DNA of 64,000 bases from Bacteroidota bacterium. Lineage in GTDB: Bacteria > Bacteroidota > Bacteroidia > Chitinophagales > Chitinophagaceae. The position numbers were made by a program, and so were the translations under genes. The notes beneath the pieces were generated by a model. That model searched no databases and was not told the DNA's origin. It saw nothing but the letters and a program-made list of their open reading frames with translations. Shown here piece after piece: positions 26,084-42,761 of the stretch. The stretch lies in the NCBI GenBank assembly GCA_018267925.1, contig JAFDXO010000171.1:1084-65083 (forward strand), given 5' to 3'. How positions within the stretch are numbered: the first letter of the stretch is position 1; each line of letters opens with the position of its first letter.

Positions 26084-26089
26084 GTAGGT

Positions 26090-27961: not shown

Positions 27962-28147
27962 AAAGGAAAGTTTAGGGTAAATATTTTCAACTGCATTTCA
28001 AAGGAAGCAATGAAAATGGATAGGAAAAATGTACAAAAGCTGTTTTCTATTTTCAAGTAAATGTATTTCACTTTATTTTTCCTATTTTTAAATGAAGCAA
28101 AAGGGCTGCATCTTTTCCGGTTCGAAACAAAAAATAATCAAACCCGA

Positions 28148-28897
28148 ATGAAAAATAAACATCTTTTTTTCTCCCTGCTTATGGTTTTGGCATCGCTACT
28201 GAATGCTTGCCACAAACCGCTTTTCATCAGCAGCCACACCAATCATTTCTATACCATATCCAATCAGTATGCGGCAGATAGCGCTATGGTACAAATGCTA
28301 AGACCCTATAAAATTGGCGTTGATACACAAATGCAAGTTGTAATTGGTTATTCTGATGTGCCACTGACTAAGGCTCAACCGGAATCTACCTTGGGAAATT
28401 TTATGGCTGATGCACAATTGAAAAAGGCTCAATCAATAGATAGAAAAGTGGTAGGATCGGTTGTCAATTATGGTGGTGTACGATTGCCTTATGTAGCTCC
28501 GGGTGCATTAACTCGGGGAAAAATGTACGAATTAATGCCCTTTGATAATGTGCTGACTATTGTAGAAATGCCCGGAAGCGATTTACGTCAATTTTGTGAT
28601 TTTATGGCTATACGAAAAGGCTGGCCAATTAGCGGGATTACCTACCTTATTAAAGATAAAGCCGCCGCAGATATTCGGGTGGACGGATTGCCCTTAAATG
28701 ATAATGTGGTTTATAAAATAGCTATGGGAGATTATATAGCTAATGGTGGAGATAATGCAGATTTTATACGCCCACTTAAAAGAAAAAATACGGGTGTTTT
28801 TATTCGAGATGCCATGATTGAATATGTAGAACAACTTCAAGCCAAAAACATCCACCTTCATCTAAACATTGAAAAGAGAGTACAATATGCAGAATAG
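28148..28897 (+). CDS. lipoprotein with 5'-nucleotidase C-terminal (substrate-binding) domain
   Basis: A lipobox (LLNAC) is followed by GNFMADA, GG.R and YEL.PFDN motifs of the UshA C-terminal domain. The first ATG after the TTG-extended ORF is at 28148. Confidence 0.75.
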   Translation: MKNKHLFFSLLMVLASLLNACHKPLFISSHTNHFYTISNQYAADSAMVQMLRPYKIGVDTQMQVVIGYSDVPLTKAQPESTLGNFMADAQLKKAQSIDRKVVGSVVNYGGVRLPYVAPGALTRGKMYELMPFDNVLTIVEMPGSDLRQFCDFMAIRKGWPISGITYLIKDKAAADIRVDGLPLNDNVVYKIAMGDYIANGGDNADFIRPLKRKNTGVFIRDAMIEYVEQLQAKNIHLHLNIEKRVQYAE

Positions 28898-29819
28898 AAG
28901 ATCCTTTTTGAGATTAAGTGCAACTGGTGGAGCCTTGCTTTTAGGTGGAGCATTTCCCTTTGAAAGCCTTGCTGGTAGTGCCACACATAAGTTGACTATT
29001 TTACACACCAATGATGTGCATAGTAGATTAGACCCCTTTCCTTTAGATGGAAGCAAATATCAAGGCGAAGGCGGTGTGGCAGAACGTGCATCTTTGATAA
29101 ATAGTATTAGAAAGGAAACAGAACAACTGTTGTTGCTTGATGCCGGCGATATTTTTCAAGGGACTCCTTACTTCAATCTTTTCAAAGGCGAGCCGGAAAT
29201 GAAGGCGATGAGCCTGATGGGATATGATGCTGCCACGATGGGTAATCATGACTTTGATGCAGGAGTAGATGGCTTTGCCAAGCAATTAATCCACGCAAAT
29301 TTTCCTATTCTGATAGCTAACTATGACTTTGCTGCTACTGCCTTAGAAGGGAAAACACAACCCTATAAAACGTTTAAAAAGGGTGCTATTAAAGTGGGTG
29401 TCTTTGGGTTGGGTATCGAACTAAAAGGGTTAGTACCGGACGATGCCTTTGGAAAAACAGTTTATTTGGAACCCATTCAAATAGCAAATAGAACAGCTGA
29501 ACGACTAAAAAAAGAAGAAAAATGTGACTTCATTATTTGCCTTTCCCACCTCGGCTATCACTCAAACGGTAGAAAGGTAAATGATCTCATATTGGCAAAA
29601 GAATCAGAAAACATTGACTTGATCATTGGTGGTCATACGCATACTTTTTTAGATGAACCCACACTATTAAAAAATAAAAAACAAAAAGATATTATTGTCA
29701 ATCAAGTAGGTTGGGCAGGTGTTCGCTTAGGTAGATTAGATTTTGAATTTGATAGCAAAAAGAGTTCCAAACTTACCAATGCTCAATCTGTAATCGTTAG
29801 GAAACAAACAAGAGGTTAG
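28887..29819 (+). CDS. Tat-signal metallophosphoesterase (5'-nucleotidase N-terminal catalytic domain)
   Basis: A twin-arginine signal (NRRSFLRLSATGGA) is followed by HTNDVHS, DAGD, GNHDFD and GGHTH calcineurin-type motifs. It overlaps the upstream gene by 11 nt. Confidence 0.8.
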   Translation: MQNRRSFLRLSATGGALLLGGAFPFESLAGSATHKLTILHTNDVHSRLDPFPLDGSKYQGEGGVAERASLINSIRKETEQLLLLDAGDIFQGTPYFNLFKGEPEMKAMSLMGYDAATMGNHDFDAGVDGFAKQLIHANFPILIANYDFAATALEGKTQPYKTFKKGAIKVGVFGLGIELKGLVPDDAFGKTVYLEPIQIANRTAERLKKEEKCDFIICLSHLGYHSNGRKVNDLILAKESENIDLIIGGHTHTFLDEPTLLKNKKQKDIIVNQVGWAGVRLGRLDFEFDSKKSSKLTNAQSVIVRKQTRG

Positions 29820-30058
29820 GGATTTTTTTTTTCAACAGAATGTTGGCAATTTCGTTTCCCCGCCAAAGAAATATAACGGCGAAATTTTAAAAAGTATCAA
29901 TGCGGTCTTGCGTTGTATCTTAATTAGATTCCGAGTTGAGCATTAATTAATTAGAAAGGTTTTTTAAGAAATATTGAAAGCGGGGGCAAATTTGTTGCTG
30001 CAAAGGGAACATTTGCTTTAAAAATTAGTAATTTACAGGAATTCAGGTTAACAAAAAC

Positions 30059-31531
30059 ATGGACAAGCACCTCTATAATATTACATCTAAAAATGAAGCA
30101 GAAGCAGTATGGGCAAAATGTTTGAGTATCATAAAAGATAATCTGAACTGGAGAACCTATCAAACATGGTTTGAGCCAATTAAGGCTGCCGCCTTGTCAG
30201 GCACAGTTTTGACCTTGCAAGTTCCCAGTCAGTTTTTTTATGAATGGTTGGAAGAGCATTATGTAGAGTTGATGGGAAAAACCATAAAACGTGTTTTAGG
30301 CCGCGAAGGCCAGTTAGAATATCGTATTCTAATGGAAGGTGCTTCTACTCAACGAAACCCCGCTGCCATTAATATTCCGGCTAGCAACTATCATAAGCCA
30401 TCTAAAGATTCAAACTATGTGGACATGCCCCTAAAATGGGATGATCCGTCTAACATAAAAACACCCTATGCTATTCCCGGATTGAAGAGAATGCAGATAG
30501 ACCCTCAATTGAATGCTAACTATACGTTTGAAAACTATGTAGAGGGCGATTGCAATAGAGTAGCCCGTTCTGCTGGATTACATGTAGCACAAAAGCCGGG
30601 TGCTACTTCATTTAACCCACTGGTAATCTTTGGTGGAGTTGGCTGGGGAAAAACTCATTTGGCACAAGCAATAGGAAATGAAGTTCGCAGATTGCATCCG
30701 AATAAAGCAGTACTTTATGTGAGTGCCGATAAATTTATCAACCAATTTATTGACCATTCCAAAAACAATGAAGTAAATGATTTCATTCACTTCTATCAAC
30801 TCATTGATGTGCTGATTTTGGACGATATTCATTTGTTTGTACCAGCAGCTAAATCTCAAGATGTGTTTTTTGCCATTTTCAATCATTTGCACCAAAGTGG
30901 TAAACAAATTATCCTCACAAGCGATACACCTCCCAAAGATATGGAAGGTATTCAGGAACGCCTGCTGAGCCGCTTTCGCTGGGGACTCAATGCCGATATT
31001 CAAGCTCCGGGCTTTGAAACCAGACAAGAAATTCTACGTCAAAGAATGAGACGGGAAGGATTAGAATTGCCTGATGATGTAGTGAAATATATTGCCTACA
31101 ATGTGCAATCCAATGTGCGTGAACTGGAAGGCGCATTGATAGCTTTATTTGCTCAATCTACACTAAACAGAAAAGAAGTTGATCTGGATTTGGCAAAACG
31201 AGTAATGAAGAATTTTGTAAAAACTGCCGCCAGAGAATTAACCATAGAAAATATTCAAAAATTGGTGTGTGAATACTTTCATATTCCCTATGACAGATTG
31301 TTAGCAAAAACTCGAAAACGAGAAGTAGTACAAGCACGTCAAATCACCATGTTTTTAGCAAAAAAATTTACAAAAAGTTCTCTCAAAAATATAGGAGAGC
31401 ATTTTGGTGGTTTCGATCACACAACGGTTATCCACTCTTGCCAAACGGTTGAAAATCTCATGCACACTGATGGCGAATACAAAGAAAACCTTTTAGAATT
31501 GCAGCAAAAGGTGCAACTAGCAAGTATTTAA
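30059..31531 (+). CDS. dnaA: chromosomal replication initiator protein DnaA
   Basis: AAA+ Walker A GGVGWGKTHL, LILDDIH, sensor motifs, and a C-terminal DnaA-box-binding domain (VVQARQITMFLAKK...GG.DHTTVIH). Confidence 0.97.
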   Translation: MDKHLYNITSKNEAEAVWAKCLSIIKDNLNWRTYQTWFEPIKAAALSGTVLTLQVPSQFFYEWLEEHYVELMGKTIKRVLGREGQLEYRILMEGASTQRNPAAINIPASNYHKPSKDSNYVDMPLKWDDPSNIKTPYAIPGLKRMQIDPQLNANYTFENYVEGDCNRVARSAGLHVAQKPGATSFNPLVIFGGVGWGKTHLAQAIGNEVRRLHPNKAVLYVSADKFINQFIDHSKNNEVNDFIHFYQLIDVLILDDIHLFVPAAKSQDVFFAIFNHLHQSGKQIILTSDTPPKDMEGIQERLLSRFRWGLNADIQAPGFETRQEILRQRMRREGLELPDDVVKYIAYNVQSNVRELEGALIALFAQSTLNRKEVDLDLAKRVMKNFVKTAARELTIENIQKLVCEYFHIPYDRLLAKTRKREVVQARQITMFLAKKFTKSSLKNIGEHFGGFDHTTVIHSCQTVENLMHTDGEYKENLLELQQKVQLASI

Positions 31532-31573
31532 GCAGGAAATGCAAAATTTATTTTGAAAAATCGGAAGGACAAC

Positions 31574-31581
31574 TATCTTTG
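31574..31581 (+). promoter_or_regulatory. candidate -7 promoter box (TATCTTTG) upstream of the tRNA-Ser/tRNA-Pro pair
   Basis: Exact TAnnTTTG match about 75 nt upstream of the tRNA-Ser 5' end. Confidence 0.3.
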
Positions 31582-31656
31582 CAGTCCCTTAGAAAAAAAG
31601 GGAAAGTAAAAGTTCTTAAACAGAATAGCTGCCATACCGCCGGCAGCATTCAGACT

Positions 31657-31745
31657 GGTGAGGTGGGTGAGTGGCTGAAACCAATAGTTTGCTAAACTGT
31701 CGTACGGGTTAAACTGTACCGGGGGTTCGAATCCCCCCCTCACCG
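31657..31745 (+). tRNA. tRNA-Ser (anticodon GCU), class II with long variable arm
   Basis: I folded it by hand. Acceptor ggtgagg/cctcacc, anticodon stem atagt/actgt with loop ttGCTaa, variable arm with gtac/gtac stem, T-arm ggggg-ttcgaat-ccccc. CCA is not encoded. Confidence 0.9.
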
Positions 31746-31758
31746 CTGGTTTTTTTTT

Positions 31759-31832
31759 CGGGAAGTAGCGCAGGCCGGTAGCGCATCTGGTTTGGGACCA
31801 GGGGGTCGCAGGTTCGAATCCTGTCTTCCCGA
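31759..31832 (+). tRNA. tRNA-Pro (anticodon UGG)
   Basis: I folded it by hand. Acceptor cgggaag/cttcccg, D-arm gcgc/gcgc, anticodon stem tctgg/ccagg with loop ttTGGga, T-arm gcagg-ttcgaat-cctgt. CCA is not encoded. Confidence 0.9.
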
Positions 31833-31887
31833 CACACAAAAGCCGCAAATGCTTTATTATCAGCATTTTGCGGCTTTTCTATTTTTA
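31821..31887 (+). repeat. left attachment-site repeat (attL): last 12 nt of tRNA-Pro plus its terminator hairpin
   Basis: This 67-bp stretch recurs at 38602-38669 and is identical except for one extra T in the right copy. Confidence 0.85.
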
Positions 31888-31995
31888 TTTGTTGTCGGTT
31901 TGGTTGTCAATAAATCTCTAAAACTCCCTTTTCGACCTCTTATTTGCCTTTTATCTTATCCGTTTTGTTGCCATTACCGGAAACAAAAAACGGTT

Positions 31996-32034
31996 AAAAA
32001 AATCCGCCTTAACAATCTATGACTATTAAGGCGG
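31996..32034 (-). terminator. rho-independent terminator after the small-ORF pair at the element's left end
   Basis: ccgccttaa / ttaaggcgg forms a 9-bp stem (32004-32012 / 32026-32034), followed on the minus strand by a T-run (plus-strand A-run 31996-32002). Confidence 0.5.
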
Positions 32035-32090
32035 TGTGCAAGGTGCAATACCCAGCGTTGCAAATGTACTATACTTGTATTTAACGTTCG

Positions 32091-32312
32091 TTACTTCAAA
32101 TCGCTTATATCAATCAATGTTTTTTGCAGAAAATCAAAGACGGTGAAATAAGTTGTACGCCCGTTATTTTTCCAATATGCCTCTAAAAATTCCGCATCTG
32201 TTTGTTGTTTCAGCAATTCCAAAATATCCCATTGCAGATTATACAAGTCGTTATAATCAGTACCAACCCATTCAAACACCAACTTGTTTTCTTTTTCATT
32301 GTGCTGTATCAT
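32091..32312 (-). CDS. small acidic hypothetical protein (73 aa), element cargo
   Basis: The ORF shares a TAATG overlap with the upstream 88-aa ORF, and a terminator lies downstream. I see no recognisable motif. By my count it has about 13 acidic and 7 basic residues. Confidence 0.45.
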   Translation of the reverse strand: MIQHNEKENKLVFEWVGTDYNDLYNLQWDILELLKQQTDAEFLEAYWKNNGRTTYFTVFDFLQKTLIDISDLK

Positions 32313-32578
32313 TACATACCTCCCGTGTTTTGATTGTTTAATAATGCCTGAAACATAACCTTTGCATCGTCAATGGTAGGCAGCATTTCAGAAAGTAGCT
32401 GTAATGTGTAGTAGTTGGGTTCGCCCGTTGCATCTTCGCTTAGTTTGGTTGCCTGTATTGTAGATACAAGCCCTTGCAGCGTTTGCGTGTAGTCATTTGC
32501 CAGCCTAATAGCTGTTTTTTCTTCTGTGTAGGTGGGAAATTCTATTGCCCAACCTTTCGGCGTTACAATAATTGCCAT
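32312..32578 (-). CDS. small acidic hypothetical protein (88 aa), element cargo
   Basis: The ORF is preceded by its own leader and follows an upstream terminator. It is coupled to the 73-aa ORF and has no recognisable motif. Confidence 0.5.
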   Translation of the reverse strand: MAIIVTPKGWAIEFPTYTEEKTAIRLANDYTQTLQGLVSTIQATKLSEDATGEPNYYTLQLLSEMLPTIDDAKVMFQALLNNQNTGGM

Positions 32579-32581
32579 AAC

Positions 32582-32597
32582 GTATTAGATTTAGGAA
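32582..32597 (-). repeat. 16-bp direct repeat copy 1 (gtattagatttaggaa), 3 nt upstream of the 88-aa ORF start
   Basis: An exact 16-mer also occurs at 32717-32732, 135 bp away. Confidence 0.6.
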
Positions 32598-32716
32598 TTG
32601 AAAAACCCGTGTTTTAGGTGTCCTGCGTTCTAATACAAACGCCGTTGCCTTTCGGACTAACGCACCATCACACGGGCTTTTCAGTTGATAAACTGAATGA
32701 TTGTTTAACATTATGG

Positions 32717-32732
32717 GTATTAGATTTAGGAA
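32717..32732 (-). repeat. 16-bp direct repeat copy 2 (gtattagatttaggaa)
   Basis: Exact duplicate of 32582-32597, lying just downstream (minus sense) of the terminator at 32758-32794. Confidence 0.6.
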
Positions 32733-32757
32733 AGCCAAAGGTAGGCATTGAGCCATT

Positions 32758-32794
32758 AAAAAAGCAAAGGCGAAAACCTTTGCAAGTTTTCGCC
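32758..32794 (-). terminator. rho-independent terminator after the 107-aa HTH gene
   Basis: ggcgaaaac / gttttcgcc forms a 9-bp stem (32769-32777 / 32786-32794) with an 8-nt loop. On the minus strand it is followed by TTTGCTTTTTT. Confidence 0.55.
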
Positions 32795-32836
32795 CTCTAT
32801 GGTTGCGGGTTGATGTAATCGCCCCGCGTGTATATA

Positions 32837-33160
32837 CTATCCTTTCACGGCGGCATTATCATTTTCCCTTAGCTCCCGAATGTAGTAATAAACCATGCTC
32901 CGGCTTTTGCGTAGTGCCTTTGCTATGGCTGTATAACTCAATCCCTTTTGGTACAAGTTATAAGCCCGTTGCTTCAACGGCGTAGGCGCGGCGTTTTCGG
33001 CAAACTTGTATTGTGCTATCCAGCGTTGCACCGTTCGCGGGTTTGTATCTATCAGTTTGCCTATTTCCTTTGCGTTTAAGCCCCGCAAATGATATTGATA
33101 AGCCCTGCCTACCAATTCGGGCATTTTGTCGCTAATAGCGTGTTTTGTGTCGTTTTTCAT
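32837..33160 (-). CDS. protein made of two tandem HTH modules
   Basis: Residues ~15-51 and ~62-97 share one pattern: A..L...G.....I...L......V..YI. Copy 1 ends PRTVQRWIAQY and copy 2 ends RSMVYYYIREL. Confidence 0.65.
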   Translation of the reverse strand: MKNDTKHAISDKMPELVGRAYQYHLRGLNAKEIGKLIDTNPRTVQRWIAQYKFAENAAPTPLKQRAYNLYQKGLSYTAIAKALRKSRSMVYYYIRELRENDNAAVKG

Positions 33161-33402
33161 TTTAATTTACGTTTAGTTATGGTTAATTAAAGTTTTTCGT
33201 GTCGCTATTTTTCGCGACAAATTGCCGCTTTTATTGAACTCATTTTGAGATACGCCCCCACTGTCAAAATCTGACGGTTAAACCCTTTGCCTTTACGGTT
33301 TTCATGGTTTTTAGGCACTCAAAAGCCCTGTTTTATAGCATTTTTCAGTAGTTTTTTTATCCTTTGGCGGCTGCATTGATACGGGTATTGATACACGGAC
33401 TT

Positions 33403-33921
33403 TTAACCGTTATTTTTCTTTAATCGCAAGCCCCGAAAGGGTTGTTTTTCTTTAATTCCGGTTGAATTGATATGCGGTTGATACGTTTTTTTTGCTTCAA
33501 AGTCTTTGATGTATCGTTGTACGGTGTATTTGGCACAACCCAGCAAGTCCGCTATTTCCTGAATATCAAATTTGCTGCCTGTATGCAGTCGCTCAATGAT
33601 AGCCCGTTTCTTAGTCATTGAGTAGCTGCCAGCTTCACGCACCCAGCGCGTTACCGTTCTTTCTTTCACTCCCAACATCAGGGCAATGGCTGTACCCGTG
33701 TACCGTCCCGAATTATGCAAACTCAACGCCTTTTCATGTAGCTGTTTTTTTTCGCGTTTTTTGTTGTGATTGGGAAAAGCTACTTTGAGCCAATACATAA
33801 CATTGGCGCGGCTTGCGCCTGTCTGTCTTGCAATTTGATGTTTGTTGGTAATGCCATTGCCAAACATTTCTATTGCTTGCGCCCGTTGTTGGGCTAACAA
33901 CATTTTCTTTGCTGTTTTCAT
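33403..33921 (-). CDS. protein made of three tandem HTH modules
   Basis: Three ~37-aa copies of the same module end in SRANVMYWLK, ERTVTRWVRE and KYTVQRYIKD. The ATG overlaps the Rep stop (ATGA). Confidence 0.65.
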   Translation of the reverse strand: MKTAKKMLLAQQRAQAIEMFGNGITNKHQIARQTGASRANVMYWLKVAFPNHNKKREKKQLHEKALSLHNSGRYTGTAIALMLGVKERTVTRWVREAGSYSMTKKRAIIERLHTGSKFDIQEIADLLGCAKYTVQRYIKDFEAKKTYQPHINSTGIKEKQPFRGLRLKKNNG

Positions 33922-35360
33922 TTTTCAACTTTGGTTTTATTGTTGGTGAATAATTGTAGATAATCCCGCGCCGCTTGCCCTGTAAGGGTTTCCGGCGGTT
34001 CGCTGCGTACCGTTGGTAATAGGTCTATGCGTTCTATTTTATCCAGCCAATCGCGGGTAATGTGTAGCTCCGAAACATGGAGCGTATCGGTATAGGTATT
34101 ACCGCTTGCATCTTTGGCGCGGTATGTAACGGCTATAAATTCATGTTCATTTTTCATTGCTTTGTTTATTTTAATTTTTAAATCCCGTCTGTGATTGCTG
34201 CCAGCGTTGCGGCATTTCTTACCCGCCTTTCCGTTTATGGCTTCGCTGCAATACCTACTTTGCGGGCGTTGGTGGTTTATGTTTTTTCCACACGAAAGAC
34301 AGCAACGCGGCGGCGGCATTTGTGCATTTTTTGCACCATTTATATTATTTATTTTTCTACTAAAAAAAGTTGCATTTTGATAGGGTGTTTTTGGAGTGTC
34401 TTTGTGGGACGTTTGCCCTGTACATTCAAGCAGTGCAAACGTCCCAATTTTTACCGCTTCATTTTCTTTTTTGGGGCGGTGCAAACGTCCTATAAATTCC
34501 GCTTCAAAAAGGGCGTTCCATGTACCGGAAATATAAGTTTCCAACTCCGGTATATTTCCGTAATGGCTAAGTAATTCGTTCCACTTTTTGAGGTGGTAAT
34601 ATCTTTTCTTTCGGTTGATGTTTACCCAGCTTCGCGGGTTGTTGTAGTACAACCATTGTTTTTGTTCGCGGTCGGTCAATCGGTCAAGATTAACGGTGGT
34701 GTCCGTCCACACAATATTTTTTACCGCGTTCAACAAAACGGCTTTTAGTGGATATACTTTTTCAGGGTTTTGTAAATCTGCCATTGTTTTAATACCGTAT
34801 TGCTCTAAGGCTTGCATCTTGTTTACCGATACTTCAAAGCGTAGCATATTACCTACGTCAACACCGCTTTGTTTGGCTTTGTCGTACACCTTTACGCTAT
34901 ACCTGTCAAGGCACACGCCTACGCCGTTTCGCAATAGACGTTTGTTTATAGGCTCAAACGTCTTACCGCCGAATGAAACAATATTTTTCAGTAGCCGGAT
35001 AGGCGGATAAGGCAAGGGAATATTTACGCCTATTTCCAACCCGTGTATTTCGCACTCCTTAGCATCAATGCCGAATGTGTCCACAATGCCGGATATGGTG
35101 TTTTGCAGGGCTGCCATAGTGTAAGTGTCTGCATTATGCAGCCCGTAATTATTGTACTTGTGCAAGCTGCCAGCAAGGTTAAAAGCATAGCCGCCGCCGC
35201 GTGTGGGTTTAAGGTCAAAACGTAAGTTTCTAATTTCGGCGTGTCGGTTATCATTCACGCGCTTACCTGTGCTTTCGTTCACGGTTATTTCCCAGCAAGG
35301 CAAGGCGGGCAAATGACTATTTGCCGTGCCTATGTACGTTGCTTTTATACCGTCTATCAT
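33918..35360 (-). CDS. putative rolling-circle replication initiator (gene II/X- or Rep_trans-like) with C-terminal Cys-rich zinc-ribbon-like region
   Basis: MIDGIKATY..., then LAGSLHKYNNYGLHNADTY (compare GNP.KF.QGHN.FG in phage gene II proteins), then YSVKVYDKAKQ...MLRFEVSV (compare the YDK/R.E motif of Rep_trans). The C-terminus carries CCLSCG...YCSE...KCRN. This is a by-eye assignment only. Confidence 0.5.
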   Translation of the reverse strand: MIDGIKATYIGTANSHLPALPCWEITVNESTGKRVNDNRHAEIRNLRFDLKPTRGGGYAFNLAGSLHKYNNYGLHNADTYTMAALQNTISGIVDTFGIDAKECEIHGLEIGVNIPLPYPPIRLLKNIVSFGGKTFEPINKRLLRNGVGVCLDRYSVKVYDKAKQSGVDVGNMLRFEVSVNKMQALEQYGIKTMADLQNPEKVYPLKAVLLNAVKNIVWTDTTVNLDRLTDREQKQWLYYNNPRSWVNINRKKRYYHLKKWNELLSHYGNIPELETYISGTWNALFEAEFIGRLHRPKKENEAVKIGTFALLECTGQTSHKDTPKTPYQNATFFSRKINNINGAKNAQMPPPRCCLSCGKNINHQRPQSRYCSEAINGKAGKKCRNAGSNHRRDLKIKINKAMKNEHEFIAVTYRAKDASGNTYTDTLHVSELHITRDWLDKIERIDLLPTVRSEPPETLTGQAARDYLQLFTNNKTKVEK

Positions 35361-35369
35361 TGCCGCCCG

Positions 35370-35717
35370 TTATGCTTCGCCCTGTATTGTGAACGCCGTA
35401 AGCGTAAGCGTGTACAGTTTTTGCAAGGTTTCTAAAGCAATTCCCAAAAGTTCCGACACGGTACTATATACCATTTCCGGCGCGTGTTGTAGTTGCTCCA
35501 ATTCTAACAACATGGCAACGGTGGCGGCGGCATTATCCGGCACGGCTGTTAGCTCCGGCATTGGTAGTTGCAGATATTCCGTTACCTCTCTCATGGTTTC
35601 GGCAAGGGCGGCGCGTTTGGTTTCCGGCGTTGGTTTGTGTGTTGTCTGCATCAATGGAGCAAAGGCATCAAAAGCCGCTTTGATAGCTCCAATTTTCGCC
35701 GTTAATAGCTTATTCAT
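35370..35717 (-). CDS. hypothetical protein (115 aa), Ala/Leu-rich helical
   Basis: The ATG at 35717 overlaps the Xis-like stop (ATGA). It sits in the xis-rep operon and has no recognisable motif. Confidence 0.5.
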   Translation of the reverse strand: MNKLLTAKIGAIKAAFDAFAPLMQTTHKPTPETKRAALAETMREVTEYLQLPMPELTAVPDNAAATVAMLLELEQLQHAPEMVYSTVSELLGIALETLQKLYTLTLTAFTIQGEA

Positions 35718-36013
35718 GCTAAACGCTCCCTTTTGCTGCATTGCGCTTTGGCGGCGGCTTTTACTTCGCTCAATAGAAAACGGGTTTTGTTTGCAATCTT
35801 GTAAGGTTTCAAGATACCCGCGTTAATCCACGCATGAACGGTAGGCAAGGATATTTTAAACATATCCGCTACGTCTTGCCTTGTAATGTAATCTTCCGGC
35901 TCTTTTGGTTGGGCAGTCTTGCTAATTACGTCAAGCCGTTTGTTTATGGCTTCAAATTGCTGTAAAAGTATTGAACTGTCTATTTGTTCAATTTGGATTA
36001 GTTGCTTTTGCAT
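35714..36013 (-). CDS. excisionase-type (MerR/HTH_17-like) DNA-binding protein
   Basis: ITRQDVADMFKISLPTVHAWINAGILKPYKIANKTRFLLSEV is the classic Xis/AlpA-type HTH. The first ATG is at 36013. Confidence 0.7.
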   Translation of the reverse strand: MQKQLIQIEQIDSSILLQQFEAINKRLDVISKTAQPKEPEDYITRQDVADMFKISLPTVHAWINAGILKPYKIANKTRFLLSEVKAAAKAQCSKRERLA

Positions 36014-36062
36014 AGCATAAAGTATTTTATGCCGCAAAGCTGAATTTACTTGTAAAGAAAAG

Positions 36063-36089
36063 CCCGTAAGTTACGGCGTAACATACGGG
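36063..36089. promoter_or_regulatory. 27-bp near-perfect palindrome between the RteC-like gene and the xis-like gene (terminator and/or operator)
   Basis: cccgtaagttacg-g-cgtaacatacggg pairs at 12 of 13 positions. It is flanked by A-runs and T-runs on both sides. Confidence 0.5.
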
Positions 36090-36143
36090 CAAAACGTAAG
36101 CGGTGTAATGGTTTGAGCCATAAATATATTTTTCTGCTATGGC

Positions 36144-37136
36144 TTATTTTGTCATTTTATCTTTTAAAAAGTTATTGATTGCAGCGTTAAGTTTTGAGGT
36201 AAATAATTCTTTGGGCGGTTTGTCTTGCAGGTCGTTAATATTTATGCTATGCCTTTTCTCATTAAACGGCGTGGGTGTTTTCTTTTCGGGTGCTAATACT
36301 TCTACCAATGGAGCAAAACGGCGTATTATTTCCGTTTCGGGAGTGCCTACAAATACAGTTAATGCCAAAGCCTTTATTAACTCTGAAAATTCATTTTGCG
36401 TTCCTTTCCATGTCAAAGGAGCGGCGGCGGTTTGTGGTGTGGCTTCATTCATGTTTTTCTCTTTATAGTTTATGGCAGCCTCTATAATGTCGGCAAATTC
36501 TTTTTCTGTGTAAAACTTTGGTTTATGGTATTCGTTTTTCCCATGTCCGTCTTTTGCGTTGAAAATTGCAAGTTGCTTTTGATTTTCGCCCGTTATTCCG
36601 TTAATCTCAATCAGCAATATTTTAATGTATAGTAAGTCAATTACTTTATTCATTTCTGTTTTGCATTGCTCTATTAATACATTGTCCGGCTGCAACCTTA
36701 TTTCATTCTCTTTTCTTTCCAAAAGTATTTTATCATTGAAAGTAATTGTTTGCGGCGGTGCATATTTCACAACCGTTTCAAGTTCCTTTTGCTCTTTGAT
36801 AATGCTTTCAAAATAGGCTTTCCTTTCATTCAAATTACCAATATCGCGGGCGGTGTATATCTGTTTTCTGAAAGTTGTATTATATGTATGGTTGTTTATT
36901 GCTTTCGCGTTTTCTTTCGTTTCCTTAATAAACCTTTCCGCAAGTTCTTTACTCATACACTCCTCTATTCCCTCAAAATCAAATGCGTTTTCTTTTTCCG
37001 CCTCATTATAGGCGGTTGTTTCAAAGTATATTATAGGCGGTCTTATTCCGTCTGCTATTTTTTCAATATCAATATTCAACGCCTTAGCGGGTGTTTTCTT
37101 TGCTGTCATTTTCTTTGCTTTTAAAACAATTTTCAA
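36144..37136 (-). CDS. hypothetical protein with RteC-like C-terminal region
   Basis: The C-terminal LTWKGTQNEFSELIKAL ... FTSKLNAAINNFLKDKM resembles the L.W.GS...L.ELIYAL ... FLD.L...L..RM pattern of Bacteroides RteC regulators. The N-terminal two-thirds is unassigned. Confidence 0.4.
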   Translation of the reverse strand: MKIVLKAKKMTAKKTPAKALNIDIEKIADGIRPPIIYFETTAYNEAEKENAFDFEGIEECMSKELAERFIKETKENAKAINNHTYNTTFRKQIYTARDIGNLNERKAYFESIIKEQKELETVVKYAPPQTITFNDKILLERKENEIRLQPDNVLIEQCKTEMNKVIDLLYIKILLIEINGITGENQKQLAIFNAKDGHGKNEYHKPKFYTEKEFADIIEAAINYKEKNMNEATPQTAAAPLTWKGTQNEFSELIKALALTVFVGTPETEIIRRFAPLVEVLAPEKKTPTPFNEKRHSININDLQDKPPKELFTSKLNAAINNFLKDKMTK

Positions 37137-37142
37137 ACGGGT

Positions 37143-38411
37143 TTAAAATTCATTTTGCGGCGCGGCGTTCCAATACTTAGCGACAATTTCCGCGTGTTCG
37201 GTTTCGGATAGTTTTACATATTTCAAAAACACACTTTCTTTTTTGTGTCCGGTTATTTTCATTACGCTTTGGGTGGGTATTCCGGCGCGTATGGCATTGG
37301 TAGCAAAGGAACGGCGGGCGGTGTGCGTAGTGATAAGCTGCCATTTTTCGTAAACTTCATTTACCAGCTTACCGCCTTTGGTTTGTTGCTTTCCTACTTT
37401 CTCAACTATTCCAGCTCTCTTACCTACGTCTTTAATGTAATCGTTTATTTTTTGGTCGGATAATTTTGGGGGCGTATTGCCGCCGTACTTGCTCAAAATT
37501 GCCTTTACGGTTTGGTGTATGGGAATTACTACGCGCCCGCCTGTTTTGTGCTGTATAAGGTCTATTTTGTCCCCTTTGATATTGTACGGTTTGAGGTTGT
37601 TATAATCCGATACGCGCAAGCCTGTATAACAACCTATCAAAAATAAATCCCGTGCGCGGTCGTACCCGTTTTGGGTGTCCAACTTTACCGCCTCAATCCT
37701 TTTCAGTTCGTCCGGTGTTAGGTAAATGTCTTGCGCTTGCTCCCGTGCCGCCTTGAATAAACGCGGGTTAATAACGTCCGCTTCAAAAGGTATTTTTTCT
37801 AATTGCGCGGCGCGTAGGAATTGCCGGAAATTATCAATATGCTTTGCAATGTTGTTTACTGAATAGCCTTTTACAGACGTGAGAAAATCCCGAAAATCTG
37901 AAATTGTTTGTAGGCTTATTGTGTCAAATTCCAATTGCTCCCTGTTTTCTTTCTCAAAGGCTTTCAGCACGTCAAAGGTTGTGTTATATTCCTGTATAGT
38001 GCGGTAACTGATAACCCGCCCTGTTTTGGGATTAATACGGGTTTTTGAGGCTTCAATGAATTTTGCCAGCCAATTCCAAAACGTAGCCTTTTCAATTACC
38101 GTTTTTCCCGTCCACAAGTCAAGCCCTGTTTTTAATAGGTCTTTTGTTATGGTTTGTCTTTGGGCAATCCCCGTTTCATAAATTCGTTTGGTTTCTGTCT
38201 TTAGGTCTTTCAGGTAGTTGTTAATTTCGTCCCTGTTGGGTTCGTCAATAACATTTCTTACTTCATAGGTTTTGCCGTTCCAATGCTTAGGTAATATGTT
38301 GTAGCTTGTCGGATACACAAACTTGTTTCCCGCCCAGCGAACAATTAGATAAACTTTTTCGGGTCGTTTGCTGTTTTGACGGCGTAGGTTAAAACGACAA
38401 TTCAATTTCAT
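37143..38411 (-). CDS. tyrosine-type site-specific integrase (Bacteroidota arm-binding + SAM-like + catalytic domains)
   Basis: Catalytic residue context: GLRVSD (Arg), HTARRSFATN (H..R), GHKK and LKYV (Tyr). The N-terminal KVYLIVRWAGNKF arm-type domain is present. The gene is adjacent to attR. Confidence 0.92.
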   Translation of the reverse strand: MKLNCRFNLRRQNSKRPEKVYLIVRWAGNKFVYPTSYNILPKHWNGKTYEVRNVIDEPNRDEINNYLKDLKTETKRIYETGIAQRQTITKDLLKTGLDLWTGKTVIEKATFWNWLAKFIEASKTRINPKTGRVISYRTIQEYNTTFDVLKAFEKENREQLEFDTISLQTISDFRDFLTSVKGYSVNNIAKHIDNFRQFLRAAQLEKIPFEADVINPRLFKAAREQAQDIYLTPDELKRIEAVKLDTQNGYDRARDLFLIGCYTGLRVSDYNNLKPYNIKGDKIDLIQHKTGGRVVIPIHQTVKAILSKYGGNTPPKLSDQKINDYIKDVGKRAGIVEKVGKQQTKGGKLVNEVYEKWQLITTHTARRSFATNAIRAGIPTQSVMKITGHKKESVFLKYVKLSETEHAEIVAKYWNAAPQNEF

Positions 38412-38601
38412 ATCAACAAAAATACCTTAAAAAGTTAAACGTTGTTGTTTTCGTTGTCGTTTTTTCTTTACTTTTCTTTATTTTCTCTTACCTTATTTAA
38501 TCATTACACAAAACATATATACTTTGTAAGCATTGATAATAAAGGAGTTTTAGCCGCATTTTCGTATAATTTAAAAAAATGCAATTAAATACTTTGTCGT
38601 A

Positions 38602-38669
38602 CTGTCTTCCCGACACACAAAAGCCGCAAATGCTTTATTATCAGCATTTTGCGGCTTTTTCTATTTTTA
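38602..38669 (+). repeat. right attachment-site repeat (attR): orphan copy of the tRNA-Pro 3' end plus terminator hairpin
   Basis: A 68-bp copy of 31821-31887 with one extra T. No tRNA body lies upstream of it. Confidence 0.85.
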
Positions 38670-38811
38670 AAATTAATTCATTTAGTCAGCATTTTTTTTG
38701 AAAAAAAATCCTTAAAAAAGGTTTTCAGATTTCTTTTTATCGAATCATTTTTGCTATACACGCTTCGTACTATTTGTCTTCTATATTCAACGGAAAATTA
38801 CCTTTGTGGCT

Positions 38812-39777
38812 ATGCACTCATTTAACGAATTGGTTTCTGCTTTCGAGCAGAGATTTGCCAGCGCTTTACCCTTTCCCCAAAACCCAACAACCCTGTATGA
38901 GCCTTGTCGCTATTTCCTAACCATTGGCGGAAAGCGCATTCGCCCTGTCGTATGCCTTATGGCTCATGAATTATTTGAACCGCTCAGTAATGATGCGTGG
39001 CACGCAGCTATGGGCATCGAACTGTTCCACAACTTCACACTGATTCATGATGATATTATGGATAAGGCTCCTTTACGACGAAATATGTCAACCGTGCATG
39101 AACGCAACGGATTGACTGCAGGTATTCTTTGCGGAGATGTTATGAGCATATATGCCTATGAACAATTAGCCAATATCAATCATTCTCTTTCGCAAGTGCT
39201 TCATCTGTTCAACACAACTGCAATTGAGGTTTGCGAAGGGCAACAATTAGACATGGATTACGAGAAGCGCAATATTGTTTCAATAGATGAATATATTGAG
39301 ATGATTACCCTCAAAACATCTGTTCTCATTGCTTGTAGTTTAAAAATGGGCGGACTTTTGGGCGGAGCTTCCGAAGGGAATGCCCAAAAACTGTACGACT
39401 TTGGTAAAAATTTAGGTATTGCTTTTCAATTACAAGATGATTACTTAGATGCTTTTGGATCCAGTGAGCGAATCGGAAAACAAAGAGGGGGAGATATTCT
39501 TGCTAATAAAAAAACTTATTTATGGCTCAAAGCTTGGGAATTAGGTAAAGATAGCCATCGGGCAGAATTGGTTGATTGTACCAAACGAAATGACGAATCC
39601 AAAGTTCCAACTGTACTCGATATTTTTCGTACTACCGGTGCCGATTTGGCTTGTAGAGCAGCAGTAGAATCATATTCAACAGCAGCTTTTAATTCTTTAG
39701 AAGAAGTAGCTGTAATGAGCAATCGTAAAAAACATTTGCATGACTTGGCTTCTTATCTCTTATTGCGGGATCAATAA
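38812..39777 (+). CDS. polyprenyl diphosphate synthase (trans-isoprenyl diphosphate synthase family)
   Basis: The first DDxxD is LIHDDIMD and the second is QLQDDYLD. GKRIRP is also present. A TACCTTTG box at 38799-38806 lies 5 nt before the ATG. Confidence 0.9.
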   Translation: MHSFNELVSAFEQRFASALPFPQNPTTLYEPCRYFLTIGGKRIRPVVCLMAHELFEPLSNDAWHAAMGIELFHNFTLIHDDIMDKAPLRRNMSTVHERNGLTAGILCGDVMSIYAYEQLANINHSLSQVLHLFNTTAIEVCEGQQLDMDYEKRNIVSIDEYIEMITLKTSVLIACSLKMGGLLGGASEGNAQKLYDFGKNLGIAFQLQDDYLDAFGSSERIGKQRGGDILANKKTYLWLKAWELGKDSHRAELVDCTKRNDESKVPTVLDIFRTTGADLACRAAVESYSTAAFNSLEEVAVMSNRKKHLHDLASYLLLRDQ

Positions 39778-39846
39778 ATTCATGAAATTTAACTAAAAAT
39801 TATTAAACACCATTTTTAAATTAATTAAGCTAAGAAACGGATCATA

Positions 39847-40254
39847 ATGCAATATTGGTTAGTGAAATCAGAGCCATTTAAGTATAGCTGGGAACAGTTG
39901 GTTGCCGATGGACACACATTTTGGGATGGTGTTAGAAACTTTGCAGCTCGAAATAATCTGAAAGCCATGAAAAAGGGTGACAAAGTCCTTTTTTACCATA
40001 GTAACGAGGGATTAGCCATTGTAGGAATCGCAGAAGTAGTAAAGGAAGCATACCAAGATCCCACAACCGATGATGTCCATTGGGTTGCAGTTGATTTAAA
40101 GCCAATACAAGCCTTACCCAAACCGGTATCATTATCAGTCATAAAACAAACTAAGGAATTAGAAAATATGGATCTGGTACGCCTTTCGCGGTTGTCTGTA
40201 GGTGCAGTAAGAGAAAAGGAATACCAAAAAGTATTACAATTGGCAGGGCTTTAA
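39847..40254 (+). CDS. EVE (PUA-like) domain protein
   Basis: MQYWLVKSEP..YSW..L......W.GVRN..ARN.L..M..GD.VLFYHS matches the EVE family N-terminus. Confidence 0.8.
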   Translation: MQYWLVKSEPFKYSWEQLVADGHTFWDGVRNFAARNNLKAMKKGDKVLFYHSNEGLAIVGIAEVVKEAYQDPTTDDVHWVAVDLKPIQALPKPVSLSVIKQTKELENMDLVRLSRLSVGAVREKEYQKVLQLAGL

Positions 40255-40311
40255 TAGCCCAAAAGTTGACAATTTGTTCGAAAAAAAATTTTGTATTATT
40301 TTCAAATACCT

Positions 40312-40319
40312 TACCTTTG
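40312..40319 (+). promoter_or_regulatory. candidate -7 promoter box (TACCTTTG) for rplK-rplA
   Basis: Exact TAnnTTTG match 108 nt upstream of the rplK ATG. Confidence 0.4.
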
Positions 40320-40426
40320 CGCTCCAATTTCTCTACCCCGAAGTAAAAAATCGGGTTGCTCTTACAATAAAGTTGCATTTGGGAGATTAGTGTAAAAACA
40401 ATCGTTAATACCAAAAGAAAGGTACA

Positions 40427-40870
40427 ATGGCTAAAGAAATCTCTGGCTTTGTAAAACTCCAAGTAAAAGGAGGACAAGCCAATCCGGCACCGCCAATCGG
40501 TCCCGCGCTCGGTTCCAAGGGCGTAAACATCATGGAATTCTGCAAGCAGTTTAATGCCCGCACACAAGATAAAATGGGCAAGGTGCTTCCGGTAGTACTA
40601 ACCGTTTATACGGACAAGTCATTTGACTTTGTCATCAAAACACCACCGGCTGCCGTTCAATTGATGGAAGCTGCCAAAATTCAATCGGGTTCTAAAGAGC
40701 CAAACCGTAACAAGGTTGGAAAGGTTTCTTGGGCTCAGGTTACAGAAATCGCTAAAGATAAAATGGCAGATCTAAACTGTTTCACTGTAGAAAGTGCCAT
40801 GAGTATGGTTGCAGGTACAGCACGCAGCATGGGTCTTACTGTTGAAGGCGAAAAACCAAGTGCACAATAA
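40427..40870 (+). CDS. rplK: 50S ribosomal protein L11
   Basis: [31 protein letters not shown] is canonical L11. Confidence 0.97.
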
Positions 40871-40903
40871 TCCATTGATTCACCTCATTAAAATCTTGTA
40901 GCA

Positions 40904-41593
40904 ATGGCTATTACAAAGAAAAGAAAGGCTGTAGAGGCTAAACTCGATAAAAACAAACAATACACACTGTCTGAGGCTGCTACGTTGGTAAAAGACGTAA
41001 ACCTAACTAAATTCGACAGTTCTGTAGATATGCACATCCGTTTGGGTGTAGATCCTAAAAAGGCAGATCAGGCAATTCGTGGAACAGTTACCCTGCCACA
41101 TGGAACCGGTAAAACAAAGCGTGTATTGGTGCTTTGTACTCCCGATAAAGAAGCAGAAGCAAAAGCTGCCGGTGCTGATTATGTAGGACTGGATGAATTT
41201 GTACAAAAAATTGATGGTGGCTGGACCGATATTGATGTAATCATCGCTACACCATCAGTAATGCCAAAAATTGGTCGTCTTGGTAAAGTCCTCGGACCTC
41301 GTAACTTGATGCCCAATCCTAAAACCGGAACTGTAACCAATGATGTTGCCGCAGCCGTAACAGATGTAAAAGGTGGTAAAATTGCATTCAAAATAGATAA
41401 GGCAGGAATCATTCATGCCTCTATCGGACGGATTTCTTTTACACCCGAAAAAATTGCTGAAAACGCTCAAGAATTAATCAATACACTGGTGCGCATGAAA
41501 CCCGCAACCGCTAAAGGTATTTACCTGAAAGGTATCAGTATGGCCAGCACCATGAGTCCGGGATTAGCAATTGACACAAAATCTGTTGGATAA
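40904..41593 (+). CDS. rplA: 50S ribosomal protein L1
   Basis: F..SVD..I.LGVDP.K.DQ..RG...LPHGTGK is canonical L1. Confidence 0.97.
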
Positions 41594-41682
41594 TCAGTTC
41601 AATTGCCTGATAAAAATTAATTTGTTTCACCAGTGTGCAAGGATTGTAAAACCAACAATTAGCACATTAGCAAACTAAAAAA

Positions 41683-42198
41683 ATGACAACTGCTCAAAAA
41701 AATGAAGTAATAGAGATGCTGAAAGAGAAATTCTCTCAGTACAATAACTTCTACATTACCGATACAGAATCTCTCACTGTTCAACAAGTGAGCACACTTC
41801 GCCGTCATTGCTTTGACAAGCAAGTGGAAATGAAAGTGGCAAAAAATACGCTTATCAAAAAAGCGCTCGAAAGCCTTGATAGCGAAAAATATGCCGGTGT
41901 TTATGATGCCTTGCATAACGTTACGGCATTGATGTTTAGCGAAAGCCCTAAAGAACCGGCTCTCATACTTTCATCTTTCCGAAAAGCGGCAAAAGGGGAA
42001 AAACCGGTATTGAAGGCTGCTTATATTGGTGGCGAAATTTATAGCGGCGACAACCAATTGGTTGCTCTTACGAATATCAAGACGAAAAACGAGCTTATCG
42101 GCGAAGTTATCGGCTTGTTGCAATCGCCTGCTAAACGTGTATTGGCTGCTTTGTTGCACCATCACGAAAAGCAAAATGAAGGCGCTACTGCTGAATAA
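41683..42198 (+). CDS. rplJ: 50S ribosomal protein L10
   Basis: Its position between rplA and rplL, its length and the LR......VEMKV.KNTL motif support the call. Confidence 0.93.
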   Translation: MTTAQKNEVIEMLKEKFSQYNNFYITDTESLTVQQVSTLRRHCFDKQVEMKVAKNTLIKKALESLDSEKYAGVYDALHNVTALMFSESPKEPALILSSFRKAAKGEKPVLKAAYIGGEIYSGDNQLVALTNIKTKNELIGEVIGLLQSPAKRVLAALLHHHEKQNEGATAE

Positions 42199-42335
42199 CT
42201 AAACATTTTTTAACACACTTTCGGGTGTGTTGACCAAACGATATACCAATGCCTTTGAGGTTCAAATAAGGCAATATTTATTAACCATGCCGCCGGAGCA
42301 TGAATGGCAATGAAGGCGGTTAAAAAGTAAAACAC

Positions 42336-42710: not shown

Positions 42711-42728
42711 TTGCTCCCAACTGAATTT

Positions 42729-42761
42729 AAAAGCCGCACGTCTGTTTCGTGCGGCTTTTTT
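42729..42761 (+). terminator. rho-independent terminator after rplL
   Basis: aaagccgcacg / cgtgcggcttt forms an 11-bp stem, followed by a T-run. Confidence 0.75.

Follow-up and report, generated by a model that had tools for sequence, protein, structure and literature searches.

We analysed a 64,000-nucleotide stretch of a Chitinophagaceae genome (Bacteroidota bacterium, assembly GCA_018267925.1, contig JAFDXO010000171.1, positions 1,084 to 65,083 of the forward strand; hereafter the window), in which 6,781 bp of DNA has been inserted in the 3' end of a tRNA-Pro(UGG) gene. As a whole, these data are best explained by an apparently intact integrative element that replicates by the rolling-circle mode, depends on a helper and is switched by a c4-2 antisense RNA, an explanation that we hold to be likely. 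More tentatively, and with somewhat less than even confidence, we propose that the element belongs to an undescribed but widespread family of integrative rolling-circle replicons of Bacteroidota, most likely minimal phage satellites, with an initiator that represents a new Rep_trans branch outside Pfam, an origin in the linker-coding part of the initiator gene and a c4-type RNA that sets the integrated vs. active state. The island itself, i.e. a tRNA-targeting integrative element with attachment (att) repeats and a tyrosine integrase, is ordinary.

ARAGORN identified tRNA-Ser(GCU) at 31657-31746 and tRNA-Pro(UGG) at 31759-31833 as neighbours on the plus strand, with Rfam placing the end of the latter at 31832 (63.8 bits). 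The direct repeat at 31821-31887 and 38602-38669 spans the final 12-13 nt of tRNA-Pro together with the terminator hairpin at 31838-31878, and the two copies are equal at 67 of 68 bp, the right copy having one additional T (GCGGCTTTTC vs. GCGGCTTTTTC). Alignment of both copies bore out an initial annotation of this DNA, which had described the repeat as the tRNA-Pro 3' end plus terminator with a 1-nt indel in a T-run. As this is the sole difference, the crossover lies to the left of the T-run, in or near the tRNA part. The tRNA-Pro gene is intact at attL. The target and the two boundaries are:

31759-31833, plus strand: tRNA-Pro(UGG), the integration target (ARAGORN, Rfam), with its 3' end from 31821 supplied by attL
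31821-31887, no strand assigned: attL, the left 67-bp repeat copy (repeat alignment); synteny with the empty-site contig L109 stops at 31887
38602-38669, no strand assigned: attR, the right repeat copy, with the displaced tRNA 3' end and terminator; synteny with L109 restarts at 38602

Nine plausible genes are found between the repeats, all of them on the minus strand (9/9) as had been annotated in the list of open reading frames (ORFs), and the first gene of the element, for a 422-aa tyrosine integrase, has its start codon 190 bp inside the right copy. With respect to composition, the element has a GC content of 40.9% vs. 38.5% elsewhere in the window (for host windows of 6.7 kb, mean 38.4 +/- 0.8%, maximum 40.1%), and its tetranucleotide distance to the host is 0.0243 vs. 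0.0104 +/- 0.0017 for host windows (maximum 0.0141), which is ~8 standard deviations above these windows. Both measures set the element apart from the host, and the compositional break that had been surmised from three hand-counted lines is real, but far smaller than those lines implied.

The most direct evidence for insertion came from an element-free relative. A protein search with the polyprenyl synthase encoded next to the right repeat (pps, 38812-39777) yielded a 94%-identical orthologue in the Bacteroidetes metagenome-assembled genome GCA_018267875.1, the contig of which (L109) shares with the window Wzz, Poly_export, PNPOx, chromate transporter, SCO1, NhaA, 5'-nucleotidase, metallophosphatase and DnaA on the dnaA side, as well as pps, EVE, L11, L1 and L10 on the other side. 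In L109, dnaA (8050-9522) is followed by tRNA-Ser, tRNA-Pro (9748-9822) and pps (from 10001), with the element absent; this is the empty site envisaged in the initial annotation, with tRNA-Pro and its terminator directly before pps and a single 67-bp copy. Megablast gave two blocks, L109 3-9876 with window 22004-31887 (88.3% identity) and L109 9810-20964 with window 38602-49770 (88.7% identity), which overlap in L109 by one 67-bp attB copy, the segment duplicated in the window. Since the blocks break exactly at 31887 and 38602, the window carries a precise insertion of 6,781 bp, and since these synteny breakpoints coincide with both copies, chance can be dismissed as the origin of the repeat. 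With the copy brought in by the element, the tRNA and its terminator are restored. Repeats, integrase, composition and empty site thus all agree on a tRNA-targeting integrative element in the 3' end of tRNA-Pro.

The two window copies also agree with each other at ~6 positions that differ from the attB of L109; we therefore infer that attP matches the tRNA terminator of this host lineage, and this sequence match suggests a history of cycling within the lineage. Among 80 metagenomic pps loci (53-72% identity), none (0/80) had tRNA-Pro or dnaA upstream, rendering them uninformative on the empty site, and a blastn search with the complete element found nothing in phage and plasmid collections. 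Logan contigs encoding the exact pps protein (L001/L002, 1-40, from runs SRR24111674 and SRR24111696) begin inside the right repeat, at the first k-mer separating the right copy, while the dnaA contig (end of L003) stops inside tRNA-Ser. These contig ends point to the same organism with two repeat copies in those runs, the integrated and the excised form not being separable by them.

Replication of the element is attributed to the following gene and to a hairpin within it:

33918-35360, minus strand: rep, for a 480-aa putative rolling-circle initiator of Rep_trans-like type, Rep (AlphaFold2, Foldseek, invariant residues)
34405-34446, minus strand: candidate double-strand origin (dso) or nick-site hairpin inside rep (fold, covariation), with its loop at 34421-34430

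The 480-aa protein is not recognised by the Pfam model of Rep_trans (PF02486), and from its predicted structure we take it most readily for a distant member of this superfamily. The AlphaFold2 (AF2) model, based on a 35-sequence alignment, had a mean predicted local distance difference test score (pLDDT) of 85 and displayed a confident N-terminal alpha/beta catalytic domain (residues 1-288), a disordered linker (289-345) and a C-terminal part comprising a Cys4 zinc ribbon (C354, C357, C371, C383) and a small C-terminal domain. In a Foldseek search of the PDB, the only significant match was RepSTK1, as exemplified by four 4CIJ chains (A-D) at a probability of 1.0, E 5e-4 to 8e-4 and a template modelling score on the target, TM(target), of 0.41-0.43, with nothing beyond 4CIJ below E 0.03. 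The Rep_trans active site is known from RepDE as well as RepSTK1, and in RepSTK1 comprises the metal ligands D9, D116 and E196, the catalytic Y179 flanked by R177 and K181, and R194 (PMC4797284). The invariant residues of the Rep family are D3, G64/S65/H67, E109/G111/N113, K157/Y159/K161 and R174/E176, and a comparison of sequence positions places them in the same order and at similar spacing (Rep vs. RepSTK1: D to D/E, 106 vs. 107; Y to E, 17 vs. 17).

Sequence searches with Rep were less revealing of its fold but indicated a large family. PF02486 was not detected in 35 family members at E <= 1, nor in 10 further members at E <= 0.01, and the 45 members scanned had no replication-family match in Pfam. 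The zinc-ribbon region gave a weak match (E 0.001) to an unannotated PHROG family, the Rep profile retrieved only zinc-ribbon noise from PDB sequences, PADLOC was uninformative and tblastn against a plasmid collection yielded no match. In a word-indexed search we found 59 homologues, none with a recorded Pfam domain (0/59), and every named one, from Chitinophagaceae and other Bacteroidota, is listed as 'hypothetical'; an exhaustive profile search gave 3,693 cluster representatives at E <= 1e-3, among them 1,798 at E <= 1e-30 (clusters at 50% identity).

Among viral models, the best Foldseek match of Rep was an inovirus 'Replication-associated protein G2P' (E 4e-9). As the best viral structural matches are of this inovirus gpII type and the size of the element falls within the inovirus range, we considered an integrated filamentous (inovirus-like) or other single-stranded DNA (ssDNA) prophage, a reading that we regard as highly improbable and rejected on gene content, as evidenced by: 1) no pI/Zot-like morphogenesis ATPase was matched among the nine ORFs in Pfam or PHROG; 2) inspection of the translations by eye, with no membrane-segment prediction run, revealed neither a Walker-A motif nor a hydrophobic coat-like small protein; 3) the nine ORFs include no capsid or jelly-roll candidate, ORF2 being predicted mostly helical.

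Rep homologues also occur outside the integrated elements. The IMG/VR record L018 (IMGVR_UViG_3300020045_016539, 1-4972) has a 121-bp terminal overlap, indicating a circle of ~4.85 kb, and encodes a Rep homologue, an HTH_17 protein and a 286-aa protein, the N-terminus of which resembles by eye the start of these integrases, with no tblastn match to the integrase and no catalytic integrase present; L018 has the appearance of a free-standing replicon, akin to a plasmid or a virus, with a member of this Rep family. A 31-kb IMG/VR contig (L016, 552-11314) combines a Rep homologue with the anti-repressor Ant, an endolysin, the reverse transcriptase of a diversity-generating retroelement and a tail protein, and its rep contains a hairpin with a perfect 13-bp stem. 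The presence of Rep homologues on the circular L018 and the phage-like L016 supports a role for Rep in replication. Another homologue was noticed in a 28-kb unannotated faecal 'Bacteriophage sp.' record (MT835707, 5404-6015).

The hairpin inside rep has a 16-bp stem and a 10-nt loop, CTTGAATGTA; it encodes Rep residues 305-319 and coincides with the stretch coding for the disordered linker, at a short conserved peptide, TFxxLEC. Folded as ssDNA, it reached -17.3 kcal/mol vs. -5.3 +/- 1.7 for shuffles (z = -7.0). A hairpin is found at the matching position of rep in at least 15 loci, 890-1000 nt into the homologue (L004-L008, L010, L012, L014, L016, L099-L102 and L105-L107), with a CTTGAATRT-like loop kept and the stems differing. 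In an alignment of 12 sequences, 13 of the 17 stem pairs had changed on both sides, i.e. in a compensatory manner, and 78.9% of cells were paired vs. 63.3% in shuffles; the observed values were reached by 0/500 shuffles for four of five measures and by 1/500 for the fifth. When the partner was shifted by 1-3 columns, 3-7 pairs with two-sided changes were left. (A first attempt at adding L012 and L016 was dropped, MAFFT having shifted the register.) Recurrence at the same place with compensatory changes makes the hairpin a likely replication origin or nick site (a dso or an origin of transfer, oriT), and we put it forward as a candidate on these sequence grounds. The pT181 origin lies inside repC. 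Given a conserved loop and a co-varying stem inside an initiator gene, as with the origin in repC, we propose that the loop is the nick site. In L009, an exact 22-nt sequence at the position of the rep hairpin (10934-10955) is repeated just 3' of the gene (11501-11522), and this second copy may be another Rep-binding site or a termination site.

A nuclease of this type together with a hairpin would also suit an integrative and mobilisable element (IME), in which Rep acts as a MobT-like relaxase, the hairpin as oriT and a co-resident Bacteroidota conjugative element provides the mating pore. In Tn916 and ICEBs1, Rep_trans/MobT proteins double as relaxase and rolling-circle initiator. Among 144 streptococcal IMEs, 45 combine a protein of this type with an adjacent tyrosine integrase (PMC5704250), and integrase, nuclease and hairpin are all that the element has, with nothing else transfer-like. 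We nevertheless consider this reading rather unlikely: the Bacteroidetes IMEs described in PMC5704250 all have canonical MobP or MobV relaxases, and both the c4 RNA, which is of phage type, and the Rep homologues borne by phages speak against it. In addition, scans of the nine ORFs with Pfam, PHROGs and NCBIfam revealed neither a relaxase or mobilisation family nor a primase domain, and no coupling protein or other conjugation gene was matched in the element with Pfam and NCBIfam.

Whatever its route between cells, the helper-dependent rolling-circle element that we favour appears to carry a regulatory RNA module at its tRNA-proximal end:

32004-32034, minus strand: terminator-like hairpin after p73, the last gene (hairpin scan)
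32091-32312, minus strand: p73, its start overlapping the p88 stop (ORF list); a 73-aa ORF is likewise placed in L102
32312-32578, minus strand: p88, the presumed target of c4-2 (ORF list)
32582-32597, minus strand: downstream copy of a 16-nt repeat, TTCCTAAATCTAATAC, ending 3 nt before the p88 ATG
32601-32679, minus strand: c4-2 antisense small RNA (Rfam RF02944, c4 clan CL00128; covariance model), with its loop, GUAUUAGA, at 32629-32636
32717-32732, minus strand: upstream copy of the 16-nt repeat, the analogue of a1/b1 (repeat search)
32766-32797, minus strand: terminator-like hairpin after the 107-aa helix-turn-helix (HTH) gene (hairpin scan)
32837-33160, minus strand: 107-aa regulator with two HTH domains (HTH_23, HTH_28 and HTH_38 above cut-offs)
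33403-33921, minus strand: 172-aa regulator with several HTH domains (Pfam)

The c4-2 match was full length (model positions 1-79) and scored 65 bits vs. a gathering threshold of 41. The RNA gene lies 22 nt upstream of p88, past the terminator-like hairpin at 32766-32797, and TCTAATAC within each 16-nt repeat copy is complementary to the c4-2 loop. The loop and the two repeats have other sequences in L099, L101, L102 and L014, with the complementarity kept (five elements including that of the window); these four loci also have positional homologues of p88 downstream of c4-2. Altogether, c4-2 is found in 10 related loci, with L009, L011, L012, L015 and L106 among them. No family match was obtained for p73 in Pfam, PHROG and NCBIfam scans, and the 107-aa two-HTH protein has 40-51% identity in relatives. 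In the immI region of phage P1, c4 RNA with its a1/b1 and a2/b2 sites represses icd-ant. By analogy, c4-2 would be expected to block translation of the coupled p88-p73 pair.

This RNA brings the satellites of phages to the fore. Accordingly worded, the element might be a phage satellite (of the VEIME, PICMI or P4-like kind, i.e. virion-encapsidated integrative mobile elements, phage-inducible chromosomal minimalist islands or relatives of P4), whose rolling-circle concatemers would be packaged after excision by a helper tailed phage, with the c4-type RNA and p88-p73 acting as an immunity or anti-repressor-like switch tied to this helper. We view this as a real if doubtful possibility; it refines our best explanation and names a route of transfer. 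In its favor, the c4 family of antisense RNAs is an immunity device of phages P1/P7, the source paper of Rfam assigning c4 to Proteobacteria and phages, and c4-2 is kept in 10 related loci; the CI RNA of satellite P4 is similar to c4. A Rep homologue with the same internal hairpin occurs in L016, a 31-kb contig with phage genes, a further homologue is in the 28-kb faecal phage record, five relatives are listed in IMG/VR and the element itself is without capsid or transfer genes. The multi-HTH proteins score above the cut-off of Terminase_5 in their HTH part, and marine VEIMEs are small, capsid-less, integrative and packaged as concatemers, consistent with rolling-circle replication (PMC9618062). 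Conversely, library scans recognised no terS, pac or cos site and no capsid-size or helper-interference gene, the Terminase_5 match is a generic HTH match, the IMG/VR listing is a prediction rather than encapsidation, and no prophage is known in the rest of the window, none having been looked for there. Taken together, the c4 RNA of phage type and the occurrence of Rep homologues in phages speak for a satellite-like existence rather than MobT-like mobilisation.

The recombination module of the integrative element, its candidate sites at both ends and the neighbouring ORF4 are as follows:

31891-31909, plus strand: GTTGTCG and GTTGTCA repeats just inside attL, candidate arm-type integrase sites
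35370-35741, minus strand: p123 (ORF4), whose position between xis and rep is conserved (ORF list, gene order of relatives)
35714-36037, minus strand: 107-aa HTH_17 protein, candidate Xis/recombination directionality factor (PF12728, 41.8 bits; PHROG excisionase families)
36061-36090, minus strand: hairpin with a 13-bp stem between ORF2 and xis (hairpin scan, relatives)
36144-37136, minus strand: ORF2, 330 aa, or 321 aa from the ATG at 37109 (ORF list)
37143-38411, minus strand: tyrosine integrase of Bacteroidota-type architecture (Arm-DNA-bind_5 PF17293, Phage_int_SAM_5 PF13102, Phage_integrase PF00589)
38441-38459, plus strand: GTTGTTG and GTTGTCG repeats upstream of int, candidate arm-type sites

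Upon alignment with XerA (5HXY), the catalytic residues of the integrase were found to be kept (R266, K289, H363, R366, H389 and Y398), an inactive enzyme having been named initially as a finding that would weaken the case for an island. The Xis-like HTH_17 protein is 48-62% identical in close relatives and 33-39% in the most distant loci. ORF2 evolves fast, with a conserved C-terminal module of ~90 aa resembling RteC; its positional homologue in L100 scored 24.0 bits with PF09357 RteC, below the cut-off of 25.3, and the AF2 model (pLDDT 56, predicted mostly helical) was too poor for a fold search. This RteC-like match is weak evidence for ORF2 as a regulator of the excision genes. The repeats at the inner ends appear to fit arm-type integrase-binding sites, and in relatives short motifs particular to each recur at the two inner ends. 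The GC-rich hairpin between ORF2 and xis (GCCCGTAtGTTACGCCGTAACTTACGGGC) is kept near base for base in L010 (9262-9291), the proteins being only 30-60% identical, and analogous hairpins are present at the same position in L005 (9233-9259) and L004 (9273-9300); it could be a terminator or an operator.

The element has a number of relatives. About 20 loci have a common gene order of int, ORF2, the HTH_17 Xis-like gene, ORF4, rep and a small ORF or HTH regulators, with optional c4-2 and small ORFs or cargo after the regulators, and are integrated in various tRNA genes. In seven relatives, 14-25 nt of the tRNA 3' end (Pro-GGG, Pro-CGG, Pro-UGG, Glu, Arg, Leu-CAG and Leu-CAA) are repeated at the integrase end, and their sizes range from 5.3 to ~11 kb, so that the element, initially considered unusually small, is of normal size for its family. 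Three small contigs with Rep homologues (L105-L107) all carry host genes and thus represent integrated copies. The two copies of Chitinophaga barathri (L006, 9445-13653; L007, 9445-13649) have an xis-ORF4-rep-HTH block that is 83% identical, together with different integrases (47% and 62% identity to that of the window) in tRNA-Arg and tRNA-Pro; this shared block with unlike integrases suggests retargeting by integrase exchange. A second integrase-like gene fragment adjoins the L007 element on the opposite strand (5452-6095), suggestive of integration in tandem or in succession at this tRNA-Pro. In L100, the tRNA-proximal cargo (9476-12743) comprises a HEPN protein, a response-regulator-like protein, an S24 peptidase/LexA-like repressor and HTH_3 proteins; in the window, this variable region holds only c4-2, p88 and p73.

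One relative bears on whether the element is still functional. At the tRNA-Ser/tRNA-Pro(UGG) pair that is also occupied in the window, the Paraflavitalea speifideaquila chromosome (L010, 7014-11465) carries an element with int, ORF2, ORF4 and rep each split into several ORFs and the internal hairpin down to ~6 bp, i.e. a decaying copy. If the element of the window were likewise a fixed inactive remnant, an old insertion past excision or replication, the lack of an observed circular junction would fit. We judge this very unlikely given that: 1) all nine window ORFs are open (9/9); 2) the integrase catalytic residues and the invariants of the Rep family are present; 3) the att copies differ by 1 base in 68; 4) neither the hairpin nor the pairing of c4-2 with its targets is disrupted; 5) a relative at ~88% nucleotide identity is without the element.

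Assuming instead an intact, helper-dependent rolling-circle element, we surmise the following life cycle. While integrated, c4-2 would pair with the repeat before the p88 start and probably silence p88-p73, as c4 does for icd-ant in P1. The integrase and the HTH_17 protein would excise the element as a circle, with the RteC-like ORF2 and the multi-HTH proteins perhaps controlling this step. Rep would then nick the loop of the hairpin in its own gene by means of Tyr159 and a metal held by D3, E109 and E176, and the nick would start rolling-circle replication, as that of pT181 RepC at the origin inside repC. Since the element has no virion or transfer genes, a helper (a phage or a conjugative element) is needed for movement from cell to cell, and the multimeric or single-stranded replication products may be the substrate of this helper-mediated transfer, after which the integrase would reintegrate the element at tRNA-Pro.

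Several points weigh against this reading. For Rep, there is no match to PF02486 or to any other Pfam, PHROG or NCBIfam model, the Foldseek TM-scores are modest (0.41-0.46 on the target), and hhalign of the family profile against single RepC (pT181) or M13 gpII was not significant, a single-sequence template being too weak for this comparison. As for the hairpin, the register of its 3' arm was set for each sequence (0-2 padding N), which favours pairing, and its place in a coding region means that the role could be at the RNA level. ORF2, ORF4, p88 and p73 are without assigned function, no helper element is visible in the window, where no prophage search was made in the remainder, and the Logan contigs merely break in the repeat, giving no direct sign of excision or of a circular element.

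The proximity to dnaA had also been remarked upon initially. The gene (30059-31531) indeed ends 290 bp from the left repeat, but this is incidental: the related elements at the same tRNA-Ser/tRNA-Pro pair in two other genera (the Paraflavitalea and Chitinophaga barathri copies) have no dnaA within ~6.5-7 kb of sequence beyond tRNA-Ser. DnaA-box-like 9-mers in window 1-64000 numbered 18 vs. 18.3 expected, with no cluster near dnaA and no oriC signature, and an oriC-linked meaning of the site was rejected, these boxes being neither in excess nor clustered. The element is adjacent to dnaA because this tRNA gene happens to lie there.

As to what these findings mean, a large family of 'hypothetical' proteins becomes annotatable as Rep_trans-like rolling-circle initiators, and the co-varying hairpin within the gene offers a directly testable origin or nick site as well as an example of a DNA signal that constrains a protein linker. 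Phage satellites of Bacteroidota are as yet little known, and the family is a candidate group of them; the compact module of integrase, att site, Rep with its origin and RNA switch is a possible genetic tool for Chitinophagaceae and other Bacteroidota. As far as we have searched libraries and literature, neither the Rep family nor the embedded origin nor the RNA switch has been described earlier.

Among known systems, the Bacteroides NBU1/NBU2 elements, with which the initial annotation had compared the island, are of the same phylum and small size, insert in a tRNA 3' end and encode a tyrosine integrase and a small excision protein. NBUs measure 10-12 kb, and their gene set includes the primase-like PrmN1 and a relaxase of the MobP class, MobN1, with its oriT. 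The likeness thus holds for integrase type (the NBU-type architecture of Arm-DNA-bind_5, Phage_int_SAM_5 and Phage_integrase is present) and for the choice of a tRNA, here tRNA-Pro rather than tRNA-Leu, and ends there, as our element has no Mob or primase match and a Rep_trans-like protein instead. The streptococcal IMEs (e.g. IME_Sga2069_rpmE and IMESag-rpsI; Guedon et al. 2017, PMC5704250) are likewise small, combine a tyrosine integrase with a Rep_trans-type initiator/relaxase and insert in the 3' end of a conserved gene without a transfer apparatus of their own. They differ in belonging to Firmicutes, in targeting ribosomal-protein genes and in having a Rep recognised by PF02486, whereas the Rep of our element adds a Cys4 zinc ribbon and a C-terminal domain and is accompanied by an in-gene hairpin and a c4-type RNA module.

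The Rep_trans superfamily has been discussed for plasmids, integrative and conjugative elements and IMEs of Firmicutes (PMC5704250), for Gram-negative phage (PMC4797284) and for archaeal viruses (PMC13107129). With the pT181-family plasmids (RepC, RepD and RepSTK1; 4CIJ), our element has in common the fold predicted for Rep, a putative active-site pattern of three carboxylates, [R/K]-x-Y-x-K and R-x-E (PMC4797284) and, as a candidate, a nick-site hairpin within the coding sequence of rep. Unlike our element, these plasmids do not integrate, their Reps have no detectable sequence similarity to ours, and their helical DNA-binding domain contrasts with a zinc ribbon and small beta domain here. 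The archaeal Rep-Arvir family, a Rep_trans relative recognised by structure only (Wang et al. 2026, PMC13107129), is exemplified by betapleolipovirus SNJ2, which resembles our element as an integrase-bearing temperate element with a conserved hairpin origin; it is, however, an archaeal virus with structural genes, the hairpin lies downstream of rep rather than inside it, and Rep-Arvir is fused to a MarR-like winged HTH rather than to a zinc ribbon, with KHYYM as its tyrosine motif.

With respect to phage biology, the VEIMEs and PICMIs are similar in being capsid-less and integrative, with a size of 5-10 kb, an integrase, an excisionase, regulators and a replication module, and with concatemeric replication implied; they differ in the Rep family. 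Lastly, P1 immI (c4, icd, ant) and the CI RNA of P4 share with our element a small antisense RNA just upstream of small ORFs and target repeats on both sides of the RNA gene, the downstream copy being at the translation start of the first ORF; the distinctions here are the Rfam family (c4-2, RF02944), the host phylum and a p88-p73 pair without detectable similarity to Icd or Ant.

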